From: an uncultured Methanosarcinales archaeon
GTDB taxonomy: Archaea; Nanobdellota; Nanobdellia; Woesearchaeales; GW2011-AR15
Direction of reading: 5' to 3'
DNA length: 64,000 bases
NCBI GenBank assembly: GCA_964552005.1
Contig: CAZKFC010000002.1
Span: 35,188 to 99,187 of the forward strand
Shown here: in pieces, positions 11,404-46,198 of the stretch
Numbering within the stretch: the first letter of the stretch is position 1
How the letters are laid out: the number at the start of each line of letters is the position of its first letter
Notes under the pieces: generated by a model
Databases searched by the model: none
What the model was told of the DNA's origin: nothing
The model's input: the letters and a program-made list of their open reading frames with translations, nothing else
Translations under genes and position numbers: made by a program

Positions 11404-12966
11404 TTGTTAAAATTTTCAAAAGATTTATTAAAGACTCTATATACTAATTTCTCTATAAAAAAGGGGTATTATATGGAAACAAGAGCTATTGATTCTTATC
11501 AGCTTATGGTTAATGAGACAATTCCCTTACAAATTCATATATACAGCCAAAAAGGAAAGGCCGTGCCGTTCTACCATTTATCTTTATTGGATATTACTGA
11601 TGAAACTAAAAGGATTATAGAGAGGATAAGAGAAGATATCATAACAAGTTTAAGTTTTGAGTTAACTAAGAAAAAAACAAAAGAAGGCGAAGAAGAGATA
11701 AAAGAACAGTTTCAAAAAAAACTTAAAGAAATTATAAAGACGCAATTTTCAGATTTAAAAGAGAAAGATATTGGTTTAATAACAAATTACATAATAGTAA
11801 CCAGTCTAGGATTGGCAGAGATTGAGTTTTTATTAAAGGATGCTGAACTTGAAGAAATTGTTGTTAATTCATCAAAAGATCCTGTCTGGGTCTACCATAG
11901 AAAATACGGTTGGTTAAAAACCAATATTGTGTTCAAACAAGAGAATAAAATTAGGCATTTTTCAACTTTAATAGGAAGAAATGTAGATAAAAACATTAGT
12001 TTATTAGAACCATTATTAGATGCACATCTAAAATCTGGGGACAGGGTAAACGCTACATTAAGCCCAATAACTACAAAAGGCAATACAATAACAATAAGAA
12101 AATTTTCTAAGACACCATGGACAATAACTCATTTCATAAAAAATAAAACTATAGATTATACTTCTGCAGCCCTTATATGGCAGGCTATACAATATGAATT
12201 ATCAATATTAATAGCAGGCGGAACAGGCTCAGGAAAAACTTCTTTTCTTAATGTAATAAGCAATTTTTTTCCTCCTAATCAAAGGATTATATCTATTGAA
12301 GATACCCGTGAGCTTAGATTGCCCAAAACCCTACATTGGGTCCCTATGCAGGCCCGTCTACCAAATCCAGAAGGCAAAGGCGAAATTACCATGCTAGATT
12401 GTATGATTAATACTTTAAGGATGCGTCCAGATAGAATAATAGTTGGAGAAGTTAGACGTGAGAAAGAACTTGAAGTTATGTTTGAAGCAATGCACACAGG
12501 CCATTCTGTTTACAGCACGTTTCACGCTAGCAACATAGATGAAGCTATAGCCAGACTAACAAATCCGCCTATTAATTTGCCAAAACAATTGCTTTCCTCA
12601 ATAGGCCTAATTGTTGTACAACATCGGAATAGAAGAACTGGAAAAAGAATTACTTTCCAGATAGCAGAAATAAATGAATTAGGCCAGCCCGTATTATTGC
12701 TACAGCATGATTATCTCGGAGATACTATGAAACAAGTTAATTCGCCAAACAGAATTTTAAAAACATTAAACATGTATACTGGCATGTCAACAAAACAGAT
12801 ATACGCAGACATACAAGAGAAAGTTGCGGTATTAGAATGGCTTGTAAAGCAAAACATTACAGACATCAATATAATAGGATTAATAATGAGTGATTATTAC
12901 ACAGAAAAACAGCACATTATATCTTTAGTACAAACAAACAGCCCATATAAGTCAATAGGTGAATAA
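11404..12966 (+). CDS. Type IV pilus or archaellum assembly ATPase (FlaI/TadA/PilB-like).
   Basis: Walker A 'GGTGSGKTS', 'IISIEDTRELRL' and His-box 'FEAMHTGHSVYSTFHA'. Confidence 0.8.
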   Translation: MLKFSKDLLKTLYTNFSIKKGYYMETRAIDSYQLMVNETIPLQIHIYSQKGKAVPFYHLSLLDITDETKRIIERIREDIITSLSFELTKKKTKEGEEEIKEQFQKKLKEIIKTQFSDLKEKDIGLITNYIIVTSLGLAEIEFLLKDAELEEIVVNSSKDPVWVYHRKYGWLKTNIVFKQENKIRHFSTLIGRNVDKNISLLEPLLDAHLKSGDRVNATLSPITTKGNTITIRKFSKTPWTITHFIKNKTIDYTSAALIWQAIQYELSILIAGGTGSGKTSFLNVISNFFPPNQRIISIEDTRELRLPKTLHWVPMQARLPNPEGKGEITMLDCMINTLRMRPDRIIVGEVRREKELEVMFEAMHTGHSVYSTFHASNIDEAIARLTNPPINLPKQLLSSIGLIVVQHRNRRTGKRITFQIAEINELGQPVLLLQHDYLGDTMKQVNSPNRILKTLNMYTGMSTKQIYADIQEKVAVLEWLVKQNITDINIIGLIMSDYYTEKQHIISLVQTNSPYKSIGE

Positions 12967-13106
12967 ATCTGTTCTTCTCAAAACAATTTGAGGAAACTTT
13001 AAAAAAAGCCCAGCTTGGATATGATATAGAAAAATTTTCAAAATTAGTTTTTACATTTAGCTTTATTGGTTCTATATTATTAACTTTATTTGGATTATTA
13101 TTTGTT

Positions 13107-13763
13107 ATGCAATTAAAATTGCCTTATTATTTTCTTACAATAATTTTTGCTATTTCATTTTTATTAATATTCCAATTAATAAAATTAATCCCTTCATTCA
13201 GTGTGCAAAATAAACGTGCATTACTTGAATCAGATTTATTATATAGTACTAGGCACTTATTATTAAAATTAGAAAGCGGTTCTTCTTTGCTTAACGCGTT
13301 AGAAAGTGTTTCAAAATTAAAGACAAATTCAAGTGTTTTTTTCAAAGAAATAATTTATGATGTGTCTCTGGGAATGCCAATTGAAAAGGCATTAGAAAAA
13401 GCAATTGAATACAGCCCAAGCAAAGCTTTTACTAAAATAATTGAGGAAATACAAACCTCTTTGGTAACTGGAGCAGATTTGCAGAAAACATTAAAATCAA
13501 CATTAAAAGATGTAACAAGACAGCACCTAATAGCAATACAAGAATATGGTAAAAAACTTAATCCCATGTCTATGTTTTACATGATTATTGGCACAATAGT
13601 TCCTTCTTTGGGAACAGCAATGACAGTTGTAGCCACAAGTTTGTTACCGGGTGCAATAATAATTGACAGGCGAATTTTAATGTTTATAGCTGGTTTATTA
13701 TTAGTAATACAGATTTTTTTCATATTAGGATTTAAATCATTGAAGCCAATGGTGATTGAATAA
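13107..13763 (+). CDS. TadB/TadC/FlaJ-like pilus platform membrane protein (first of two). The true start may be the in-frame TTG at 12987, which adds one more TM helix.
   Basis: T2SS-F-like hydrophobic pattern. It sits immediately downstream of the ATPase. The in-frame upstream extension encodes the TM-like segment 'LVFTFSFIGSILLTLFGLLFV'. Confidence 0.55.
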   Translation: MQLKLPYYFLTIIFAISFLLIFQLIKLIPSFSVQNKRALLESDLLYSTRHLLLKLESGSSLLNALESVSKLKTNSSVFFKEIIYDVSLGMPIEKALEKAIEYSPSKAFTKIIEEIQTSLVTGADLQKTLKSTLKDVTRQHLIAIQEYGKKLNPMSMFYMIIGTIVPSLGTAMTVVATSLLPGAIIIDRRILMFIAGLLLVIQIFFILGFKSLKPMVIE

Positions 13764-14767
13764 TGTTTTATGGATTAGGAAAAGCAATTTTACCAGATAA
13801 AATAAGTAAACATATTAAGAAATATGTTCAAAAAACTGGCTTATATAACGTGCCTTATTCATTATATGGAAGTTTATTTGTATTATCAATCTTAGTTTCA
13901 ATAGGCGTCTATGTTTTTTTTGTATTTCCAAGTTTAAAAACAGCCAATCCAATTGTTTTAGGATTAGGATCGTTTATTGCACTTACAGTAATTGATTTAA
14001 TTTTAATAACTATAATTGCTTTAGTATTATGGTTGTACTATGAATTTATAATCTTTAATAGAGTTAGGCAGATTGAAGATGTTCTGCCAGATTTTTTGCA
14101 AGAAGTTTCTGTTAATTTACGAGCAGGAATGAGTTTTGACAAAGCTTTGTGGAATAGTATGGAGCCGGAATTCGGTGTATTAGAAACAGAAATAGAAACA
14201 GTTGCAAAGAAAGTCATGACAGGTAAAGATACTGAGCAAGCATTAAAAGAATTTTCTCAAAAATATAATTCAACATTGCTACAAGAATCCATGGACATGA
14301 TTATTGTTGGATTAAGATCTGGTGGCAACATATCTGATTTAATAGACAGGATAGTTGATAATGTCAAAGACGCGTATTACTTAAGAAAAGAATTAATTGC
14401 TTCTGTCACAAGTTATGTTATTTTTATTGCATTTACTGCTGTTTTGATATCTCCAACACTGTTTGCATTATCCTTTAATTTAATGGAAATAATCCAAGGA
14501 TTAGGAGAAAAATTATCCACTACAAGTTCTTATGGTGTGCTGCCTTTTAATGTGGGTTTTAAAAGCATTAACCCTGAAGATTTTATTTTGTTTTCAAAAA
14601 TTTCTGTTATTATAATATCAACAATATCTGCGATGATAATTGCAGATTTGCGTGAAGGAAGTATAAAAGCAGGCCTTAAATATTTACTGGCTTTTATACC
14701 ATTGGCTTATTTTACATATATTGGCATGTTAACAATATTCACAAGTATTTTTGGAATCATAATTTAG
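13763..14767 (+). CDS. TadC/FlaJ-like pilus platform membrane protein (second of two).
   Basis: Polytopic protein with a cytoplasmic helical domain (T2SS-F-like). Its start overlaps the stop of the upstream gene (ATGA). Confidence 0.6.
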   Translation: MFYGLGKAILPDKISKHIKKYVQKTGLYNVPYSLYGSLFVLSILVSIGVYVFFVFPSLKTANPIVLGLGSFIALTVIDLILITIIALVLWLYYEFIIFNRVRQIEDVLPDFLQEVSVNLRAGMSFDKALWNSMEPEFGVLETEIETVAKKVMTGKDTEQALKEFSQKYNSTLLQESMDMIIVGLRSGGNISDLIDRIVDNVKDAYYLRKELIASVTSYVIFIAFTAVLISPTLFALSFNLMEIIQGLGEKLSTTSSYGVLPFNVGFKSINPEDFILFSKISVIIISTISAMIIADLREGSIKAGLKYLLAFIPLAYFTYIGMLTIFTSIFGIII

Positions 14768-15198
14768 AAACTAATAGTATCATCTAATTTAGTTTTACTT
14801 TTTTTAATAGTGCCTTGAGGCAGTTCAATTACATAACTAGCTTTGTTTTTAGAAACATAGATAGTAAAGGGTTTAAAATTTTCCTTAATTTCTATTACTC
14901 TTTTATTATCATCTAAAAACAAAACATCTATAGCATAAAAAACAAAGAACATGTGTAAATCTATTTTTTTTGGCTTTGAAAATTTAAATATATAACCAAT
15001 ATCAAGAATCTTTTTAGAAAACATTAATCCTTTTGCTCTTGAAAGAACACTGGAAAGAATTTTTTTATTTTCAACTAATACAGAATTTTTAGTTTTATTC
15101 TTAATCATTTTAGCAGGGACTTTTTGATAAATCATTAACACCGTACAAAATGAGATGATCATTCGGCACTCGTTCAATCCTAAACAATTCACGAACAT
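14764..15198 (-). CDS. Stand-alone DUF192 (COG1430) domain protein.
   Basis: 'RAKGLMFSKK...LHMFFVFYAIDVLFLD...YVIELPQG' parallels the C-terminal domain of the 10159..11133 product. Confidence 0.5.
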   Translation of the reverse strand: MFVNCLGLNECRMIISFCTVLMIYQKVPAKMIKNKTKNSVLVENKKILSSVLSRAKGLMFSKKILDIGYIFKFSKPKKIDLHMFFVFYAIDVLFLDDNKRVIEIKENFKPFTIYVSKNKASYVIELPQGTIKKSKTKLDDTISF

Positions 15199-16108
15199 CT
15201 GTATCTAAGTCAGTAAAATCACAGTAATCTTTACCAATGCCCGTTGTTGTTTGTTCACCAAAATAGAGATAATCAATAACAGACCTGTTCTTTTTCAAAA
15301 GTCCTTGCTCAAACAACTCTTCGACATTCACCATGCTCTCAATTCCAAAGGGTGATGATGATAAATTACCAGTAAATCTCATTAAGAAACTTGGCGCATC
15401 TGTATGATTAATATAATAAGAATTTAACAAATGCCCTTCTAAAATAGTAGTATCATTATTAGGACCAATAAAAGTCATATTTGGCGTAATGTTTACTAGA
15501 TTAGTAACTTTGTCTGAGGTTTCAACCGTATAAAGCGGATCTTCAAACCCAATTATCGAAAATTCTTGTTTGTATTCTTTATCAAAAACCCATGATGCCA
15601 GACCCTTAACATCGCTTATGTTTATGGTTGCGTTAAGCCTTACTTCAACCGTCCAAGGTGTTATATGTTGGATACTTACTTCATGGACTTTTACTGAAGT
15701 AATAATATTAAGTTCATCTGCTTCTTCATTTACTCTGGCAACCCAACTATTAATGTCTGCACCCTGTGTTTCCTGTCTCATTAAGCTCATTGTAATATTA
15801 CCATTGTCTGCTGTTCCATTTACCAATATCTCTGTAAATGTTTCGTCAAGATCTGTTACATAACCTTGGATTTGTCTAACGTAAGCGTTCATACTGATTA
15901 GTGCCCTATATCCTCCTATGAATAACTCCCTTTCCAAATCTTCATCAAAATCTTGGATAAAATTGTTCATTGTTTTAACTCTTGAATATATTGCACTGCT
16001 TCTTTCTCTATATCTATATGTATCTTTAGTAGTTACAACTGCCACCACCAAGATAATAACAAACAATGCTATAAATGTAAAAAACACGCCCTTATTATTT
16101 ATCTCCAT
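15110..16108 (-). CDS. Pilin-like protein with a class III signal peptide-like N-terminus.
   Basis: 'MEINNKGVFFTFIALFVIILVVAVV'. It overlaps the upstream giant pilin by 10 nt, which suggests translational coupling. Confidence 0.5.
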   Translation of the reverse strand: MEINNKGVFFTFIALFVIILVVAVVTTKDTYRYRERSSAIYSRVKTMNNFIQDFDEDLERELFIGGYRALISMNAYVRQIQGYVTDLDETFTEILVNGTADNGNITMSLMRQETQGADINSWVARVNEEADELNIITSVKVHEVSIQHITPWTVEVRLNATINISDVKGLASWVFDKEYKQEFSIIGFEDPLYTVETSDKVTNLVNITPNMTFIGPNNDTTILEGHLLNSYYINHTDAPSFLMRFTGNLSSSPFGIESMVNVEELFEQGLLKKNRSVIDYLYFGEQTTTGIGKDYCDFTDLDTDVRELFRIERVPNDHLILYGVNDLSKSPC

Positions 16109-19100
16109 ACTCTTACCTCAGCTAATGCAGGTCCCCATGGATATGGGATTTTACCAACTGAAATTGCGCCAATAACAAAATTTTGTTCTTCAATATTAAC
16201 ATATATACGGCCGTCATCATCAAAATCTAAGTTATCAAGTAAATTATACATTGCATCATCATACGTATCATTAGCATCATAACTTATAGAAGCGTTTGTG
16301 TAATAACATTGTTTTGTGCCTGTATATGTTGGCGGTACATCCACTGTTGTATTTTCTCCATCTTCAAATTCAATAGACCATTCACAACCGATGGCTTTTT
16401 CTAAAACATCGCTATATGAAACAGAAGCTGTAAATTGCGCAGTATAAATCAAGGTATTATTTTTAGAACATTCAGTATAATTTAAAGGTGAATCACCTGT
16501 TCTAATGAAAAAACTATTGTTACCTGCTTGCAATGTTGGCACAGGTATATTAACTAAGAACGGATCACCCATGGCTGTATAATCTGTTGAATAATCACTT
16601 AGATTATATACAGAATTATTGTTTACTATTAAAGCATCTGTCCAGTGTTCAGATGAATATGACGTTAACTTTGAGTTTGAAACACGGACATCTCCAGGAA
16701 TATATACATTGAAAGAACAGCCTGGGAAATTTTTTTCTTCTACGATAATTGAAATTTCGCCAAACTCTGGCGGGTCTACTAATGGATCATATTCTATATC
16801 TATATTAGAGTCACCATATAAAATACTTTCAGAGATATCTCCTGAACCTTCAATTTCAATCGTCTGTGAATGTCTAGTAGCAGAGATTATTGTAGAGGCA
16901 ACATCCTGATAAAATTGCTGCAGAGCAGTAATATTATCGCTTTTTCTATATATACCATTACCGCAATCTGCTATACCCTGTAAAGTTGTTTCATCAGCAT
17001 TATCACTAAAGCCAACAGCATAAACTGTAATACCATACTCTTGCCTAGCATCACAAGCTGCCTGGATAGCATCCTGGATAGCGTCTCCTGTTCCTTGCTG
17101 AGCGCATTGCCTATTTGCAACACCGTCTGTCATGACCATTATTGCATCTTCCCTTGTGTCATTTAATATTATTAATTCTAAATCAAATTTGGCTGCTCTT
17201 GCAGTATTTGATAAGTCAACAGCAACAACATTATCGCCTTGCTTAAAATATTCTCTTGGCACTTGTATACCGCGAGCATTCCAATATTGGGCAAAACTTG
17301 GATTTGGACTTATATATATTAGTTGGCCATTCAAATATACTTTTGCTGTATCATCATACAAAACATTAAGAACTCCTCTTCCAACTTGATTTAAATCCGC
17401 AACATTAAAGTGTTTTCTAAAATAATAATGGTTTGTTTTATTAGTAATTTTTAACTCAATGTTGTCAAATCTCCACCAGCCGTATTCTTGACTTTCAGAC
17501 GCTCGTAATTTCCCGCCAAGTTCAAGATAATAATTTCCTGGACCTGTTATCCATGGAGAAACGTCTTGGCTGTATGTGCCTGAAAATTCTGCATCGGGAT
17601 TATCCATTGTAAAAATCTCAGGATCATTATCAGAGCCACCATCATTAGCATCTAAGTCTGTACCAAGATAATTTGAACTTGTTGAGCTGGACCATCTAGC
17701 TTTTACCCAGACTTGGTCAGATGTTTCAAAAGGATTGTCATTACCATCCCATTCATAATTAAATGAGAGGATTGCTGCTCCGTTTGCCTGTATTAAATTG
17801 TACATTTCCTGCGTAATATTGATTTCTATACCATACGCACCAGAACAATCATAATTCGAGCAATCATTTTGTGTAATGTCATTATCCATTTCCAATACTT
17901 TGTTAGGTCCAACAGTTACAACTTGATTATAATCAATGTTATCATCAAAACCAAATACACCATTATTATCTAATGTGTCCCAGTCCCAGCCGTCATCATT
18001 TCCAGTAATACCAAAAGTATTGGCAGTTGAATTTAAAACACCTGATGAAAAGTCGTTAGGCGGTCCTGTAATATCTCCAGTATTTTCCCATAGATTTGCA
18101 TAGATTGCATCTGGGTCAAGTTCTTCAAATTCTAATTGTATATTATCAAACCTAAATGTGCCCCATTCTGTATTCTCACTTGCAAGTAATTTCCCACCTA
18201 TAGCCAAATAATATAATCCTGGCCCTTCTATAAAGGAGGTAATTTCTTGTGAATATGTGCCAGAAAAGTCTGTATCAGGATTAGTACGTCTGTCAACTTC
18301 TAAAGTTGTATCTCCTCCAGAAGAAGATAATTCCGCACCTAAATAATTAGTGCCAGAGGTAGGACTCCACCAGTAAGATTTTATCCAGACTTCATCTGTG
18401 CTTTCAAAGGGATTGTTGTCATTACCGTCCCAGTTATAGTTAAAAGAAATCTTTACTTTTCCTCCGTTTACTACAGCATTATATAATTCAGAAGTTATGT
18501 TAATGGCTATGCCATAAGCACCACTACAATCAAAATTTGTACACGCATTACTGCCAGCAACACTTGTATTAAACTCTAACTGTCCGTTAACTATCTCGTT
18601 ATAGCTAATATCGTCATCATATCCAAAAGGGCCTGAACCATCATTATTATTATCATAATCCCAGCCGTCATTATTGCCCGTGCTGCCGAACGTATTAGCT
18701 GTATAATTTAATATGCCAGATGAAAAGTCATTGGGTGGCCCGGGATTATCTAAATTATGTTCCCATAAATTTGCATAAGAAGTATTTCCTGCTAAAGAAC
18801 TGCCAATTTCTGTATCTACAATAGGGCTATAGACAAATCCATTAGTAGAACCATAAATAGCATTATCACTATAAGACCAATCTGATTCATTATCATAATT
18901 ATTATGATACCATGAATCTCCGTCATCATCTACAGGCGGCGGACTAAGAAAATAATTAGTAGTGTAATACCATTGCTCTTTTGACTGAATAACTGTGTTT
19001 TTTGAAATATTCTCTGTTAATATTGCAACAGCACTATTTATACCGCAGCATACACAAGTCGCGCCGCTGCCTTCATATCCTGTTTCTGGTACAGCTGTTC

Positions 19101-20550
19101 CGATTGTCTGATTTAATATATCAAAATTCGTCGTAGGATATACTGTCTCAAATGCATGTGTAGTATCATCATAAGAAATTAAACCTACTTGGTTTCCAGT
19201 TATGTTTAATATATCTTTTGAAAACTGTTTATCAAGACATTTAGCTACACTTAGCCTTGCTGTGCTTGAATCATTAAAATTTGCATCATCACAATTGCGT
19301 GCAGTGCCTGTATTATCACTATCCATACGCCAATCCATACTTCCAGACACGTCTGTTACTAATGTAACATCGGCATTTCCCTCAAAGATAAAGCCAAAAC
19401 TTACATTTTCAAAGCCAACTCGTATAGGCACGGTTTTAGCATTCATTGATGACAAGGCAATATATTTAGTAATGTTCTGCACAGTTACTGTGTGGTTTTT
19501 CTCTCCTGTTAAATTACTATCTTTATAGACGGTTGAATTTCCTATTGTCAAATAAAAAGTATTATTTGTGGCATTTGTGGCATTAACAAAATAATGTAGA
19601 TAAACTGATATGTTGTTTAGTGTTCCTGGAACATAAAAGGAAGAGTATAAATTAATTATGCCTTCTATATTGGGAAGCCATTCTTTTAGCGCATATTTTA
19701 ATGGTTCTTGCTGAAGAACATCTGTTTGGTAATCTACTCTTATAAAACCACCTCCAATAAATGCTTCTCCTAAATCACCTAAAAACGAAATTGAAAAATT
19801 ATTTTTTGCACCCTCGGCTAAAGAATTATCGCAACTGCTTATATCCCATGCATCTGCAGTCATTGTACCTGTACCTGCACTATAAATTCCGCCACACTGC
19901 ACACCATTTATATCTAAATTAAAATCAGAGCCAGCATCAAGTTCTAAATATAATCCTGTGATATTAATATCAGATGGTAAGACTATAAACCCTGAAATAT
20001 TGCCTTGACCAACGAAACCTCCAAAATACAGGTAAGAAGAATATTTTTTCCTTCTAATTCCTTTTAAATAAACTTTTGATGTTGCTCCTCTTAATGGCTT
20101 AAACTTTTCTATGCCGGATATTAATCTTCGGGAAGAAACTAATTCATCTTTTTTCCCTGTTGGAGAATCATTCAGATAAATAGACTCGCCATTTACCAAA
20201 ATCTCAAAACCAAATTTATCTGGGATTAATTTTTCACTTACAATAATAGACAAATTTCTAGCCAACTCAGTTTTGTTCAAAACATAAAATTCGCCAATTT
20301 GTTCTATAACTGAATTATTAAGATTGATTATTTCACCTGAACTTATAAGAGACTGTATGTAAGAATCATTAACTTCTGTAATCTTTATATTAGATAGGCT
20401 TGCCACAATGTCCTGGGAATAATAGTTTATTTGTGGTTGTTGTATTTCTGAAATGAAATATTTTGATGAAAGTATTAGAGCCATGCCTATTAAAATTGTG
20501 GCAAACAACGCATCTAAAGTAAAAAAATATCCTTTCTTCATTCTTGCCAC
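16099..20550 (-). CDS. Giant pilin-like adhesin (1483 aa): class III signal-like N-terminus, a vWA domain apparently interrupted by a large insertion, and a tandem duplication of about 225 aa.
   Basis: 'MARMKKGYFFTLDALFATILIGMAL'. MIDAS 'DVSGSM' near aa 400. Second-half vWA motifs 'AIMVMTDGV...GITVYAVGFS' near aa 1135. Repeats begin 'YANLWEHNLDNPGPPNDFSSG' (aa 592) and 'YANLWENTGDITGPPNDFSSG' (aa 817). Confidence 0.7.
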   Translation of the reverse strand: MARMKKGYFFTLDALFATILIGMALILSSKYFISEIQQPQINYYSQDIVASLSNIKITEVNDSYIQSLISSGEIINLNNSVIEQIGEFYVLNKTELARNLSIIVSEKLIPDKFGFEILVNGESIYLNDSPTGKKDELVSSRRLISGIEKFKPLRGATSKVYLKGIRRKKYSSYLYFGGFVGQGNISGFIVLPSDINITGLYLELDAGSDFNLDINGVQCGGIYSAGTGTMTADAWDISSCDNSLAEGAKNNFSISFLGDLGEAFIGGGFIRVDYQTDVLQQEPLKYALKEWLPNIEGIINLYSSFYVPGTLNNISVYLHYFVNATNATNNTFYLTIGNSTVYKDSNLTGEKNHTVTVQNITKYIALSSMNAKTVPIRVGFENVSFGFIFEGNADVTLVTDVSGSMDWRMDSDNTGTARNCDDANFNDSSTARLSVAKCLDKQFSKDILNITGNQVGLISYDDTTHAFETVYPTTNFDILNQTIGTAVPETGYEGSGATCVCCGINSAVAILTENISKNTVIQSKEQWYYTTNYFLSPPPVDDDGDSWYHNNYDNESDWSYSDNAIYGSTNGFVYSPIVDTEIGSSLAGNTSYANLWEHNLDNPGPPNDFSSGILNYTANTFGSTGNNDGWDYDNNNDGSGPFGYDDDISYNEIVNGQLEFNTSVAGSNACTNFDCSGAYGIAINITSELYNAVVNGGKVKISFNYNWDGNDNNPFESTDEVWIKSYWWSPTSGTNYLGAELSSSGGDTTLEVDRRTNPDTDFSGTYSQEITSFIEGPGLYYLAIGGKLLASENTEWGTFRFDNIQLEFEELDPDAIYANLWENTGDITGPPNDFSSGVLNSTANTFGITGNDDGWDWDTLDNNGVFGFDDNIDYNQVVTVGPNKVLEMDNDITQNDCSNYDCSGAYGIEINITQEMYNLIQANGAAILSFNYEWDGNDNPFETSDQVWVKARWSSSTSSNYLGTDLDANDGGSDNDPEIFTMDNPDAEFSGTYSQDVSPWITGPGNYYLELGGKLRASESQEYGWWRFDNIELKITNKTNHYYFRKHFNVADLNQVGRGVLNVLYDDTAKVYLNGQLIYISPNPSFAQYWNARGIQVPREYFKQGDNVVAVDLSNTARAAKFDLELIILNDTREDAIMVMTDGVANRQCAQQGTGDAIQDAIQAACDARQEYGITVYAVGFSDNADETTLQGIADCGNGIYRKSDNITALQQFYQDVASTIISATRHSQTIEIEGSGDISESILYGDSNIDIEYDPLVDPPEFGEISIIVEEKNFPGCSFNVYIPGDVRVSNSKLTSYSSEHWTDALIVNNNSVYNLSDYSTDYTAMGDPFLVNIPVPTLQAGNNSFFIRTGDSPLNYTECSKNNTLIYTAQFTASVSYSDVLEKAIGCEWSIEFEDGENTTVDVPPTYTGTKQCYYTNASISYDANDTYDDAMYNLLDNLDFDDDGRIYVNIEEQNFVIGAISVGKIPYPWGPALAEVRVWR
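17428..18777 (-). repeat. Intragenic tandem duplication (two units of about 675 nt / 225 aa) inside the giant pilin gene.
   Basis: The two units align along their full length ('...NDFSSG.LN.TANTFG.TGN.DGWD.D...DCSGAYGI.INIT.E.YN....G....SFNY.WDGNDN.PFE..D.VW.K..W....S.NYLG..L...DG......D.PD..FSGTYSQ.....I.GPG.YYL..GGKL.ASE....G..RFDNI.L'). Confidence 0.55.
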
Positions 20551-21710
20551 AGTACCACCTTCATTGCAATAATTTCAGATATGCCGTCATGTTTATAAAC
20601 AACATATCTTGTTAAGGCTATTAATTTTTCTGGATTGGATGCTTTTACATCGTTAATAGAGGAAAGGTTTTGTGCTGTTGCAAAAGGATATGCTAAGCCA
20701 TTGCCGGAGTTGTACAATCTACCAATCTCATTTAAATCTAACGCCCTGTTCCATATCCCAATTTCATCAATTTTTCCGTCAATAATCAACGACTCTGACG
20801 TGGTTGAAAGAATATGTAAACCATTACTTCCCACATTTAATGTGTTTGTATTTATATCTGTATCTCCAAGCACTCCGTTCTTATAATATTTAAATTCATT
20901 AGTTGTAGAATCATGCGTAATCGCAATGTGTTGATAGATTGAATCATTTAATGTCCAGCCATCATTACATACTGTAGCTTTTCCCACAAGAACAAAAGCT
21001 ATTTTATGACCTGCTGAACAACCGTGAGAAGCAGTAGCTTCTTCTCTTATGCCCCATCCATCATCCATAAAGATGTATTCTCCATCGTCTTGTCCATTTG
21101 GTGAATACCAGAAACTTATAGTTAAATCTCCTGTTACATCAAAATCATCGTAATCTGGCGCTTCCAGAAATCCTGCACCATTACTTTCTCTACCGTCTCC
21201 AATAATTCCCGCTGTATTAGTTGTTCCTGAGTTCAATAAATCTATATTTCCTAATTCGTCTGAAAAATCATTATTGTTCAATTTATAGTATGCAATTAAA
21301 CCGTTTTCTAAAGTATCATTGCCTTTATAATTATCAAATCCCCACAAAACATTTCCTTCCTTATCTTCAAAATACACTAAAAAATCAGATTTTATTCCAA
21401 ACAAATTTTTTACTTTATTGCTATTCTTATTAGTAAGATTAATTAGATATTGCAGTTTGGTTGTATTTAAAATATTGCCCTTATCAACAACACCGGGTAT
21501 TAATACTGTGTCTTCTGTCCAGTTAGTGGGAATTCCCATTGTCAATAATGTTTCACTTAATTTTTCTGCTTCTGACAAAACATTGTTTGTTTCCTTACCT
21601 GGTATATAAAAATTGCTTGTAACAAATTTAAAGGCTATTATTAATATCAATGTAAATATAGTTACACCCATGATAAAATCAAAGTACCATATTTGGTTTT
21701 TTTTATTCAT
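20538..21710 (-). CDS. Pilin-like protein with a LamG/concanavalin-A-like lectin domain.
   Basis: N-terminus 'MNKKNQIWYFDFIMGVTIFTLILIIAF'. Central 'GLIAYYKLNNND...LLNSGTT...GAGFLEAPDYDDFD...LTISFWYSP' is LamG-like. Confidence 0.62.
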   Translation of the reverse strand: MNKKNQIWYFDFIMGVTIFTLILIIAFKFVTSNFYIPGKETNNVLSEAEKLSETLLTMGIPTNWTEDTVLIPGVVDKGNILNTTKLQYLINLTNKNSNKVKNLFGIKSDFLVYFEDKEGNVLWGFDNYKGNDTLENGLIAYYKLNNNDFSDELGNIDLLNSGTTNTAGIIGDGRESNGAGFLEAPDYDDFDVTGDLTISFWYSPNGQDDGEYIFMDDGWGIREEATASHGCSAGHKIAFVLVGKATVCNDGWTLNDSIYQHIAITHDSTTNEFKYYKNGVLGDTDINTNTLNVGSNGLHILSTTSESLIIDGKIDEIGIWNRALDLNEIGRLYNSGNGLAYPFATAQNLSSINDVKASNPEKLIALTRYVVYKHDGISEIIAMKVVLWQE

Positions 21711-21711
21711 T

Positions 21712-22059
21712 TTAACAGTTTAAACATAACACATTATTTTGGTTTGTAATTATATTATCTCCTTTTTGAATATATCCTGTTATGTTTGGTATTGAAAAAT
21801 AAACAACATTATCCGAATAATTTAACAATAGGATGTTGTTTATTATGGAAACTTCAAAATCAAACCCCTCCAATTTTTGTGGTATGTAAAATACCCGAGT
21901 ATAACCTGGCTTTGTTTGTTTAGCTATCAGGAACTCGTTCTGCAAACTGTAGCCATAATCCTCAAAAATAATCCTTTTTTTATCTCTTAAATTGTCTTGG
22001 TAGAGTTCTGAGAAAACAACTGTAAAGATTATTACCATGGTTGTTGCTGCCATTATCAT
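21712..22059 (-). CDS. Pilin-like protein. The annotated ATG lies inside the predicted class III signal; the conserved 'RKAQVSTEF' motif is encoded in-frame upstream (22060–22161) with no ATG/GTG/TTG.
   Basis: In-frame upstream translation '...IKFFEFQSSSGTLRKAQVSTEFIFMIMAATTMVIIFTVVF'. An in-frame stop lies at 22162–22164. Confidence 0.45.
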   Translation of the reverse strand: MIMAATTMVIIFTVVFSELYQDNLRDKKRIIFEDYGYSLQNEFLIAKQTKPGYTRVFYIPQKLEGFDFEVSIINNILLLNYSDNVVYFSIPNITGYIQKGDNIITNQNNVLCLNC

Positions 22060-22139
22060 AAAAATAAACTCTGTACTTACTTGCGCTTTTCTTAAAGTCC
22101 CAGAAGAACTTTGAAATTCGAAAAATTTTATTTTTTCTT

Positions 22140-22547
22140 TTATCCTGATATCGATACAACATCACCAGAAGATTCTATAACTATATAATGAATGCCGGGG
22201 TTAACAGAAATAGATCCTGTTAGATTAACTTGTGAAACTGAAACAATATCTTGAATGTGGTTTTTTGCTGTCCTATAACCAAAGATTATTGTCCGTGATG
22301 TTATATTAATGTAGTCTATCCGTTCTGGAAACTGTGTTTTTAAAGTGGTTTTAGACGGCTCTCCTAAGTAATATATTGTCTCTGCCTTATCTGTGATTTT
22401 TATGGCAATATTTCTTAGATGATTAGTCGCTATGGCATCCTGAACTGTGCCAGATTGATCAAAAAAAATAATTATTAAGGGAATAGTCATCAAAAAAACA
22501 AAACCGAATATCGTAATAAACTCAACACTAACTTGACCTCTTTTCAT
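22140..22547 (-). CDS. Archaeal type IV pilin (DUF361/EppA-substrate-like); a candidate major pilin.
   Basis: 'MKRGQVSVEFITIFGFVFLMTIPLIIIFF' has the KRG|QxSxEF class III signal and a hydrophobic N-terminal helix. 135 aa. Confidence 0.65.
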   Translation of the reverse strand: MKRGQVSVEFITIFGFVFLMTIPLIIIFFDQSGTVQDAIATNHLRNIAIKITDKAETIYYLGEPSKTTLKTQFPERIDYINITSRTIIFGYRTAKNHIQDIVSVSQVNLTGSISVNPGIHYIVIESSGDVVSISG

Positions 22548-45585: not shown

Positions 45586-45678
45586 AGAATGGGTCCCCCT
45601 AGATTAAAACAAGATTTTTTTGTTAAATCATTGCAAAGACAAGCCCGCAGTTACTGCACTTGCTACAATAAGTATCTT

Positions 45679-45705
45679 CACAAGGTATAATCCTTGTGCT
45701 TTTAC
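45679..45705 (+). terminator. Hairpin plus U-rich tail downstream of the transaldolase gene; a candidate intrinsic terminator.
   Basis: 'cacaagg-tataat-ccttgtg' forms a perfect 7-bp stem followed by 'cttttac'. Confidence 0.35.
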
Positions 45706-45802
45706 AGTTCGGACATAAATCTTCTTTATCTAGGTTCATAAAATGTTAAAAAAGATTTTACATTTTAATATGTTATCTTTAAGCGATAAAGTATGACTTT
45801 TA

Positions 45803-46122
45803 AGAAGGTGTAGAGCAGTTATAAGCCACCTTTTGTCAAACTTAACGCATCTCTGCATTAATAGTTTGTCTTAACATTCAACTTAGCCTCTCAAAGGAGT
45901 TGCACAAGCAAGGGCTCACCGTTTCATCCTTTCCTGAAAAAATGTCAAGAGGTTATCTCAGGATTGTCGCCAATCCCTTCGCATCCATCATCCTATTTTC
46001 AGGCGGTTTCGTTTCTGAGTGGTTGCCATCCTTTTCAGGATCTCGCTTCCACGAGTTGCCTTTTGTAGTGGGTGGACTTTCCTCACATTAAATGCGAAAG
46101 TTAAGCACTGCCCTACAGTATT
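45803..46122 (-). ncRNA. rnpB: RNase P RNA (archaeal, reduced type).
   Basis: On the minus strand, in order: P1 (UGUAGGGCAGU pairing with ACUGCUCUACA), P2 (CUUAAC/GUUAAG), CR-I 'GAGGAAAGUCCACC' (plus 46074–46084), CR-II-like 'GGAUGAAACGGUG', CR-IV-like 'UGUGCAAC', CR-V 'ACAAAAGGUGGCUUAU' (plus 45821–45836). The P4 5'-AGUCCACC pairs with GGUGGCUU and keeps the same U·C mismatch as E. coli. GC content is locally elevated. The overlapping ORF 45900..46091 is spurious. Confidence 0.62.
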
Positions 46123-46198
46123 AAGAAGAAATTTTTTGTTTAAAAAATTATTTGTTTAAGATATGAAAATATTGAACTTTAAAAATTCTGAAGAATTT

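Follow-up and report, generated by a model that had tools for sequence, protein, structure and literature searches.

RNase P is the enzyme responsible for trimming tRNAs at their 5′ ends. Its ribonucleoprotein (RNP) form is near-universal in Archaea, DPANN included, and the protein-only enzyme HARP is absent from all DPANN genomes examined (PMC6380272). Archaeal RNase P RNAs of type A have an L15 internal loop, P16/P17 and a P6 pseudoknot, whereas type M is defined by the loss of L15, P16, P17 and P6, and usually of P8 too (Chan, Brown & Lowe 2012, PMC3579882). In Archaeoglobus profundus, A. veneficus and Ferroglobus placidus, a variant of type M with P8 still present has been described (PMC3579882). 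A survey of 298 archaeal RNase P RNAs, from 2026, found P19 in various clades and frequent loss of P16/P17 (PMC12974513).

In the holoenzyme of Methanocaldococcus jannaschii, the conserved regions CR-I, CR-IV and CR-V form the P4 catalytic core; the tRNA elbow is bound by the interleaved T-loops of CR-II and CR-III, which are both located between P10 and P12 (PMC6565675). The central A of the 3-nt J5/15 linker, the 'A anchor', stacks on the first acceptor-stem pair, and with the short P15 the 3′-RCCA tail is not recognised by base pairing (PMC6565675). When an artificial P19 is introduced into this type M RNA, the holoenzyme changes from dimer to monomer; eukaryotic enzymes with a P19 are monomeric (PMC6565675). 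Type M RNAs need proteins for activity, and in euryarchaeal RNAs the consensus P12 region forms a double K-turn that binds L7Ae (PMC5499556).

We analysed a 64-kb stretch of DNA, referred to at its full length as the window, and find that the minus strand of 45810..46116 almost certainly holds the gene for the catalytic RNA subunit of an archaeal ribonucleoprotein RNase P, from a Woesearchaeota-like DPANN archaeon. The gene is 307 nt long, and RNA position p corresponds to 46117 minus the window coordinate. A scan of the whole window gave a single Rfam match at gathering thresholds, to RF00373 at 46116..45810 (minus strand), with 147.7 bits against a gathering score of 84 and an E-value of 1.1e-41. 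The match spans positions 1-288 of the 288 in the model, is not truncated, and outscored two other, lower-scoring matches of the RNase P clan on the same RNA. The type T model, RF02357, has no match at the gathering threshold in the window, and in a permissive Rfam scan of the surrounding 900 nt the other families stay at or below about 19 bits (the best with 19.2 against a threshold of 47; thresholds 34-51). An RNase P RNA on the minus strand had been proposed from the letters of this DNA, with an Infernal scan as its check; the full-length match bears it out, with an RNase P model above threshold and no better-scoring family.

The regions CR-I to CR-V are all present, in order, on the minus strand. 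The pair formed by CR-I and CR-V at the observed spacing occurs once in the window and in none of 100 dinucleotide-preserving shuffles. The minimum free energy of the RNA is −89.9 kcal/mol (z = −3.46 versus shuffles), and its G+C content of 44%, in a window of 31.7%, agrees with the GC-enriched island described before. The four motifs quoted in the original prediction are indeed on the minus strand, in the order given and each once in the 64-kb window, but the label CR-II was attached to the wrong one (see below). The extent also had to be corrected: 45803..46122 (about 320 nt) overshoots by 6-7 nt on each side, and the Infernal alignment together with the P1 pairing gives 45810..46116. The RNA was further taken for a minimised type, which does not agree with 307 nt against a 288-position consensus, a full S-domain, an extra P19 and an extended P12. 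Likewise, its presence had been considered informative, whereas it is expected, since nearly all Archaea have the RNP enzyme and HARP is absent in the DPANN genomes surveyed (PMC6380272). The gene is an intact, ordinary and expected housekeeping gene, which standard Rfam annotation finds easily.

Relatives were collected by scanning one genome per GTDB species with the pattern GAGGAAAGTCCACC-N(212-242)-ACANAAGGTGGCTTA. The scan yielded 70 homologous loci, nearly all in metagenome-assembled genomes labelled Woesearchaeota, Nanoarchaeota or Nanoarchaeia, and including the complete genome GW2011_AR15; their identity to the window RNA ranges from 77% down to about 50%. All 18 of the 18 loci that were rescanned are full-length RF00373 matches, with 98.7-161.8 bits. 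Many TPA assemblies titled 'uncultured Methanosarcinales archaeon' carry this Woesearchaeota-type RNA (loci L009, L015, L018, L022 and others), as do two assemblies with bacterial titles, of Aminicenantes (L026) and Acidobacteriota (L029), which suggests that the titles reflect mislabelled or contaminated bins. The same locus was also reached, via the neighbouring transaldolase gene, on eight metagenome contigs, and the 307-nt RNA is 100% identical in all eight of these independent assemblies.

The structure that we evaluated is that of the Infernal alignment, supplemented with the pseudoknot of P4, the extended part of P12 and a hairpin located in the P2/P4 joiner. P1/P2 were located in the relatives by their pairing, leaving out nine with ambiguous or very long 5′ regions or runs of N. 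Pairs were counted on a MAFFT alignment of 60 sequences made without fitting to a structure, so that the counts are conservative. The fraction of paired cells is 89.5%, against 69.6% in column shuffles (none of 500 reaches the observed value) and 36-44% when the partners are displaced by 1-3 columns. Covariation scores 0.518, compared with 0.187 for the shuffles and at most 0.147 for the displaced partners, and 76 of the 88 pairs change on both sides in the 60-sequence alignment. Helices P1-P3, P5, P7-P12 and P15 of RNase P RNA are supported by covariation. Covariation-aware folding, proposed earlier as a further check, was done with RNAalifold de novo on the same alignment, and recovers P4, P7, P8, P9, P12, P15 and the outer stem of P19. 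The short P15-P17 region, P19 and the extended P12 are the three departures from the consensus, and all are lineage-wide.

Both ends of the gene are flanked by candidate transcription signals. A TATA-like box, TTTTTTAAA, is found at 46139..46147 (minus strand), −31 to −23 relative to the 5′ end of P1, with A-rich sequence before it. When the 60 relatives are aligned on the P1 5′ end, a T-T-T-W-W-A-A-A signal appears at −31 to −24 (0.55-0.93 bit, against a background of about 0.2) with an A-rich stretch at −38 to −34, which is the layout of an archaeal BRE/TATA promoter. On the other side, the T-rich 3′ flank at 45802..45809 (minus strand), ACCUUCUU, is a weak putative terminator; the relatives have an oligo-T run at +3 to +6 after the P1 3′ end, of up to 1.17 bit, and the tract in the window is weaker. 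These flanking signals support 46116 and 45810 as the approximate transcript ends, and judging from sequence the gene appears to have its own BRE/TATA-type promoter and T-rich 3′ end.

The same data bear on the possibility that the locus is a decaying pseudogene or relic, with a second copy or a protein-only HARP performing tRNA 5′ processing, which we consider very improbable. The window covers 64 kb of the genome, and its contents are compatible with such a reading: a Pfam screen of 30 window ORFs finds none of Rpp29, Rpp21, Pop5, Rpp30 and L7Ae, and ARAGORN finds no tRNA genes in the 64 kb, although intron-containing or split archaeal tRNAs could escape it. A relic is, however, difficult to reconcile with a full-length match in which every universally conserved region is intact, with helices that are all maintained by compensatory change across 60 species-level relatives, with promoter-like and terminator-like signals conserved among them, or with complete identity in eight assemblies, and HARP is absent from all DPANN genomes surveyed (PMC6380272).

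The idea that the RNase P-like motifs are incidental, and that the opposite strand holds a real protein gene, has practically nothing left to stand on. There is an ORF of 63 codons at 45900..46091 (plus strand), antisense to the RNA, and some stop-free antisense frame over the homologous segment is kept in 27 of the 60 relatives. Against this, the ORF begins with TTG, has no Pfam match, and is absent from the gene calls listed for the eight contigs with the identical locus, where no call overlaps the RNA. The ORF also lacks conservation: all antisense frames are stopped in the remaining 33 of 60 relatives, an antisense ORF of at least 60 aa is found in 19 of 60, and the substitutions track RNA pairing and not codons. 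That antisense frames stay open is probably due to the base composition of the RNA. The ORF is thus spurious, and the RNase P RNA on the other strand accounts for it, as the original prediction had supposed.

The RNase P RNA folds into the canonical two-domain architecture. Its catalytic domain is made up of P1, P2, P3, P5, the P4 pseudoknot in which a U is bulged, a P15 of minimal size, and P19. P1 is formed by positions 1-11 (46106..46116) and 296-307 (45810..45821), and has 11 bp, all of them covarying, and a bulge at A298. P2 pairs CUUAAC at positions 12-17 (46100..46105) with GUUAAG at positions 242-247 (45870..45875); its 6 bp are 98.9% paired and all six covary. Both helices had been proposed with these lengths, in agreement with the Infernal alignment. 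All elements of the RNA named here and below are on the minus strand. The P3 hairpin follows at 46084..46096 (positions 21-33, 5 bp), and its length is highly variable among the relatives, mostly with 10-46 nt between P2 and CR-I. In GW2011_AR15 (L019, CP010425) there are about 95 nt from P2 to CR-I, and by the P1/P2 pairing the RNA begins 30 nt further upstream than Infernal has it; long or variable P3 elements are also seen in L032, L037, L075 and others.

CR-I, GAGGAAAGTCC, lies at 46084..46074, and together with the 5′ strand of P4 it forms the segment GAGGAAAGUCCACC (46071..46084), in which U41 is bulged. CR-V and the 3′ strand of P4 are contained in ACAAAAGGUGGCUUAU at 45821..45836, the place of the motif quoted before as ACAAAAGGTGGCTTAT. 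P4 itself is AAGUCCACC/GGUGGCUU, an 8-bp helix of positions 38-40 and 42-46 with 287-294. We compared it with the actual P4 regions of E. coli rnpB (...AAAGUCCGGGC... and ...ACAGAACCCGGCUUA...), where the pairing is AGUCCGGG/CCCGGCUU, against AGUCCACC/GGUGGCUU in the window. The change from GGG/CCC in E. coli to ACC/GGU in the window therefore represents three compensated P4 pairs, which confirms the earlier statement that P4 is compensated relative to E. coli with the bulged U kept. The helix is compensated also with respect to the Rfam archaeal consensus (ACC/GGU versus cCC/GGg). Among the relatives P4 and CR-I are invariant because the search pattern fixed them, and covariation within this set is uninformative for P4.

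The 3′ strand of P5 and the CR-IV/J5-15 linker, UGUGCAA, are at 45900..45906, with GCAA invariant; CR-IV was quoted as TGTGCAAC in the original prediction (45906..45899). Immediately downstream is the P15 hairpin, 12 nt of the form CUC-CUUUGA-GAG at 45888..45899, and the P15-P17 region, with 6 loop nt in place of 39 RF00373 model positions, is the sole reduced region of the RNA. The 3 bp of P15 are 96.6% paired and all three covary, and across 69 relatives the median length of the element is 11 nt. Just 12 nt separate the invariant GCAA linker from the conserved GCUAAGU downstream and form the 3-bp hairpin, and because of this L15, P16, P17 and P6 are absent. A canonical type A RNA in which these elements are present but mis-modelled, as could be argued from P8 and P9 being present as in type A and from RF00373 covering both types, has next to no chance of being correct, since the 12 nt leave no room for an L15 loop, P16 or P17 and almost all of the 69 relatives have a covarying P15 hairpin of 8-14 nt. 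The catalytic domain is type-M-like with P8 kept, and is not classical type M.

Between the 3′ strands of P2 and P4 lies the P19 hairpin, at 45837..45868 (positions 249-280), with 12 bp and a 2-nt bulge, which is a 29-nt insertion relative to RF00373. It is present in 69 of 69 relatives, in lengths of 17-55 nt and with a median fold z of −3.3. All 12 pairs covary, and the outer stem is the part found de novo by RNAalifold. At another place in the molecule, between P5 and P7, some relatives carry a hairpin-like insertion of 15-35 nt, for example AAUAGC-CUCUG-GCUAUU (alignment columns ~85-112, in L025, L034, L038, L045, L052, L070, L071, L030, L022, L023 and L011), which is absent from the window RNA.

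The specificity domain, at 45907..46060 (positions 57-210), is formed by P7-P12 with the T-loop regions of CR-II and CR-III. P8 (46055..46042, positions 62-75) has 5 bp, and P9 (46041..46028) is closed by a GAAA loop; P7, P8 and P9 are each 90-94% paired (P8 90.4%), and all their pairs covary. CR-II, in the 5′ T-loop region, is CAGAAACGA at 46009..46017 (positions 100-108); it matches the Rfam consensus ACAGAAACGA and is nearly invariant among the relatives. It was missing from the motifs listed originally, where the name 'CR-II-like' had been given to GGATGAAACGGTG. This motif sits 3′ of P12 in the Infernal alignment, which is the position of CR-III, GGAUGAAACGGUG (45917..45929, positions 188-200).

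P11/P12 occupies 45928..46006 (positions 111-189), and is made up of a GAUGAU/UGA K-turn-like loop, a 3-bp P12b, a UGCGAA/GAGAUAACC loop, a 7-bp P12c in which all seven pairs covary, and a GCGA tetraloop. The element is about 34 nt longer than in RF00373, and this extension, capped by a GNRA-type loop, is lineage-wide. By resemblance to the euryarchaeal consensus motif (PMC5499556), the GAUGAU/UGA loop is likely a putative L7Ae/K-turn site. The internal loop of the extension, 5′-UGCGAA / 5′-GAGWUAACC (45950..45986), is conserved in sequence in most relatives, and it resembles the bulged strand of Kt-7 (GCGAAG). We considered this loop as a standard K-turn and rejected the idea, since no register is compatible with the Watson-Crick pairs that covary in P12c.

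With regard to function, the RNA, together with Pop5, Rpp30, Rpp21, Rpp29 and L7Ae, would remove the 5′ leader of pre-tRNAs, with both the catalysis and the partners assigned by homology. The sequence elements that carry out the roles described above for M. jannaschii (CR-I to CR-V, the J5/15 linker and the short P15) are present and invariant in the window RNA and its relatives. As it has no L15, P16 or P17, the window RNA cannot base-pair with the 3′-RCCA tail. Type M RNAs are protein-dependent (PMC5499556), and the same is therefore expected of the window RNA. L7Ae likely binds the GAUGAU/UGA internal loop of P12, and the GNRA-capped extension probably docks back on the S-domain.

Since an engineered P19 abolishes dimerisation of the M. 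jannaschii enzyme, the natural P19 may give a monomeric holoenzyme. One can also propose that the Woesearchaeota-type RNAs are a coherent structural subtype, and that their own P19 may make the holoenzyme of this DPANN lineage monomeric and eukaryote-like; we put this forward tentatively, as possible but rather doubtful. The traits of such a subtype may be a type-M-like catalytic domain, a retained P8, a universal P19 and the P12 extension with its UGCGAA/GAGWUAACC loop.

The surroundings of the gene were also inspected. On the same strand, 71 nt downstream of the RNase P RNA, starts an ORF of 38 aa with six cysteines, MNLDKEDLCPNCKSTRIIPCEDTYCSKCSNCGLVFAMI (45623..45739, minus strand). It is a zinc-ribbon ORF whose Pfam match, to that of TFIIB, is weak and below threshold (E 0.0024). 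Conserved counterparts occur in L015 (75% identity, about 70 nt downstream of the RNA) and L055 (56% identity, 627 nt downstream), whereas none was found close to the RNA of about 57 other relatives. The ORF has the look of a genuine small protein whose synteny is purely local; a general linkage to RNase P RNA was rejected, as the arrangement is confined to the species of the window and two close relatives. The window further encodes archaeal marker proteins (Sec61-beta, an eRF1/Pelota-type protein, deoxyhypusine synthase and a Dim2-type KH protein), and an RFC small-subunit-type protein is annotated on a contig with the same locus; these fit the Woesearchaeota-like DPANN origin indicated by the relatives of the RNA. 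Membrane or secreted proteins are clustered at ~11473..22547, among them one with a T2SS-F domain (13107..13763), one of 1480 aa (16099..20541) and one with a weak, sub-threshold match to a class III signal peptide (22140..22547); the cluster is probably an archaeal type IV pilus-like locus.

In practical terms, the analysis replaces a false protein call by the annotation of an essential ncRNA gene, in a DPANN genome that is poorly annotated, and it adds about 70 Woesearchaeota/Nanoarchaeota sequences to the comparative picture of RNase P RNA. These show a lineage pattern in which the P15-P17 arm is uniformly reduced and P8 and P19 are kept. This has a modest bearing on how RNase P RNA is traded for protein, and on whether archaeal holoenzymes that carry P19 are monomers; the current view of RNase P distribution is unchanged.

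Compared with the RF00373 consensus, the window RNA shares CR-I to CR-V, the bulged-U P4 pseudoknot, P1-P3, P5, P7-P12 and P15, and differs in the short P15-P17 region, the 29-nt P19 insertion, the ~34 extra nt of P12 and the ACC/GGU pairs of P4. The features that define type A, the L15 internal loop, P16/P17 and the P6 pseudoknot, are lacking. Type M is matched in the absence of L15, P16, P17 and P6, and departed from in the presence of P8, which is absent from classical type M. Type T (Thermoproteaceae, RF02357) and the Nanopusillaceae RNAs without P2/P3 are also archaeal RNase P RNAs from small or streamlined contexts (PMC3579882, PMC12974513). The window RNA belongs to neither class, as it keeps P3, a 6-bp P2 and the whole S-domain within its 307 nt, in contrast to the minimised type T, where most of the S-domain is missing and P2 has 3 bp.

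The M. jannaschii type M RNA, known from the cryo-EM structure of the holoenzyme (Wan et al. 2019, PMC6565675), resembles the window RNA in its short P15 with a small terminal loop, in having no 3′-RCCA recognition element, in the CR-II/CR-III T-loops and in the 3-nt J5/15 linker with a central A. In contrast, it has neither P8 nor P19 and is dimeric (PMC6565675), whereas the window RNA has both helices. Eukaryotic nuclear RNase P RNA shares with the window RNA the P19 between P2 and P4 and the lack of L15-type CCA pairing, and it depends heavily on proteins (PMC6565675), which is also expected of the window RNA; it differs in its other protein partners, in its P3 and in having no P12 double K-turn (PMC5499556).

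The P8-retaining type M variant of the Archaeoglobaceae has the same traits as the window RNA, being without L15, P16, P17 and P6 and having a typical P8. This variant is found in Euryarchaeota, whereas the window RNA is from DPANN; it also has P19 and a lineage-specific P12 extension. Each structural element of the window RNA is already catalogued, and it is their combination that is characteristic of the lineage.
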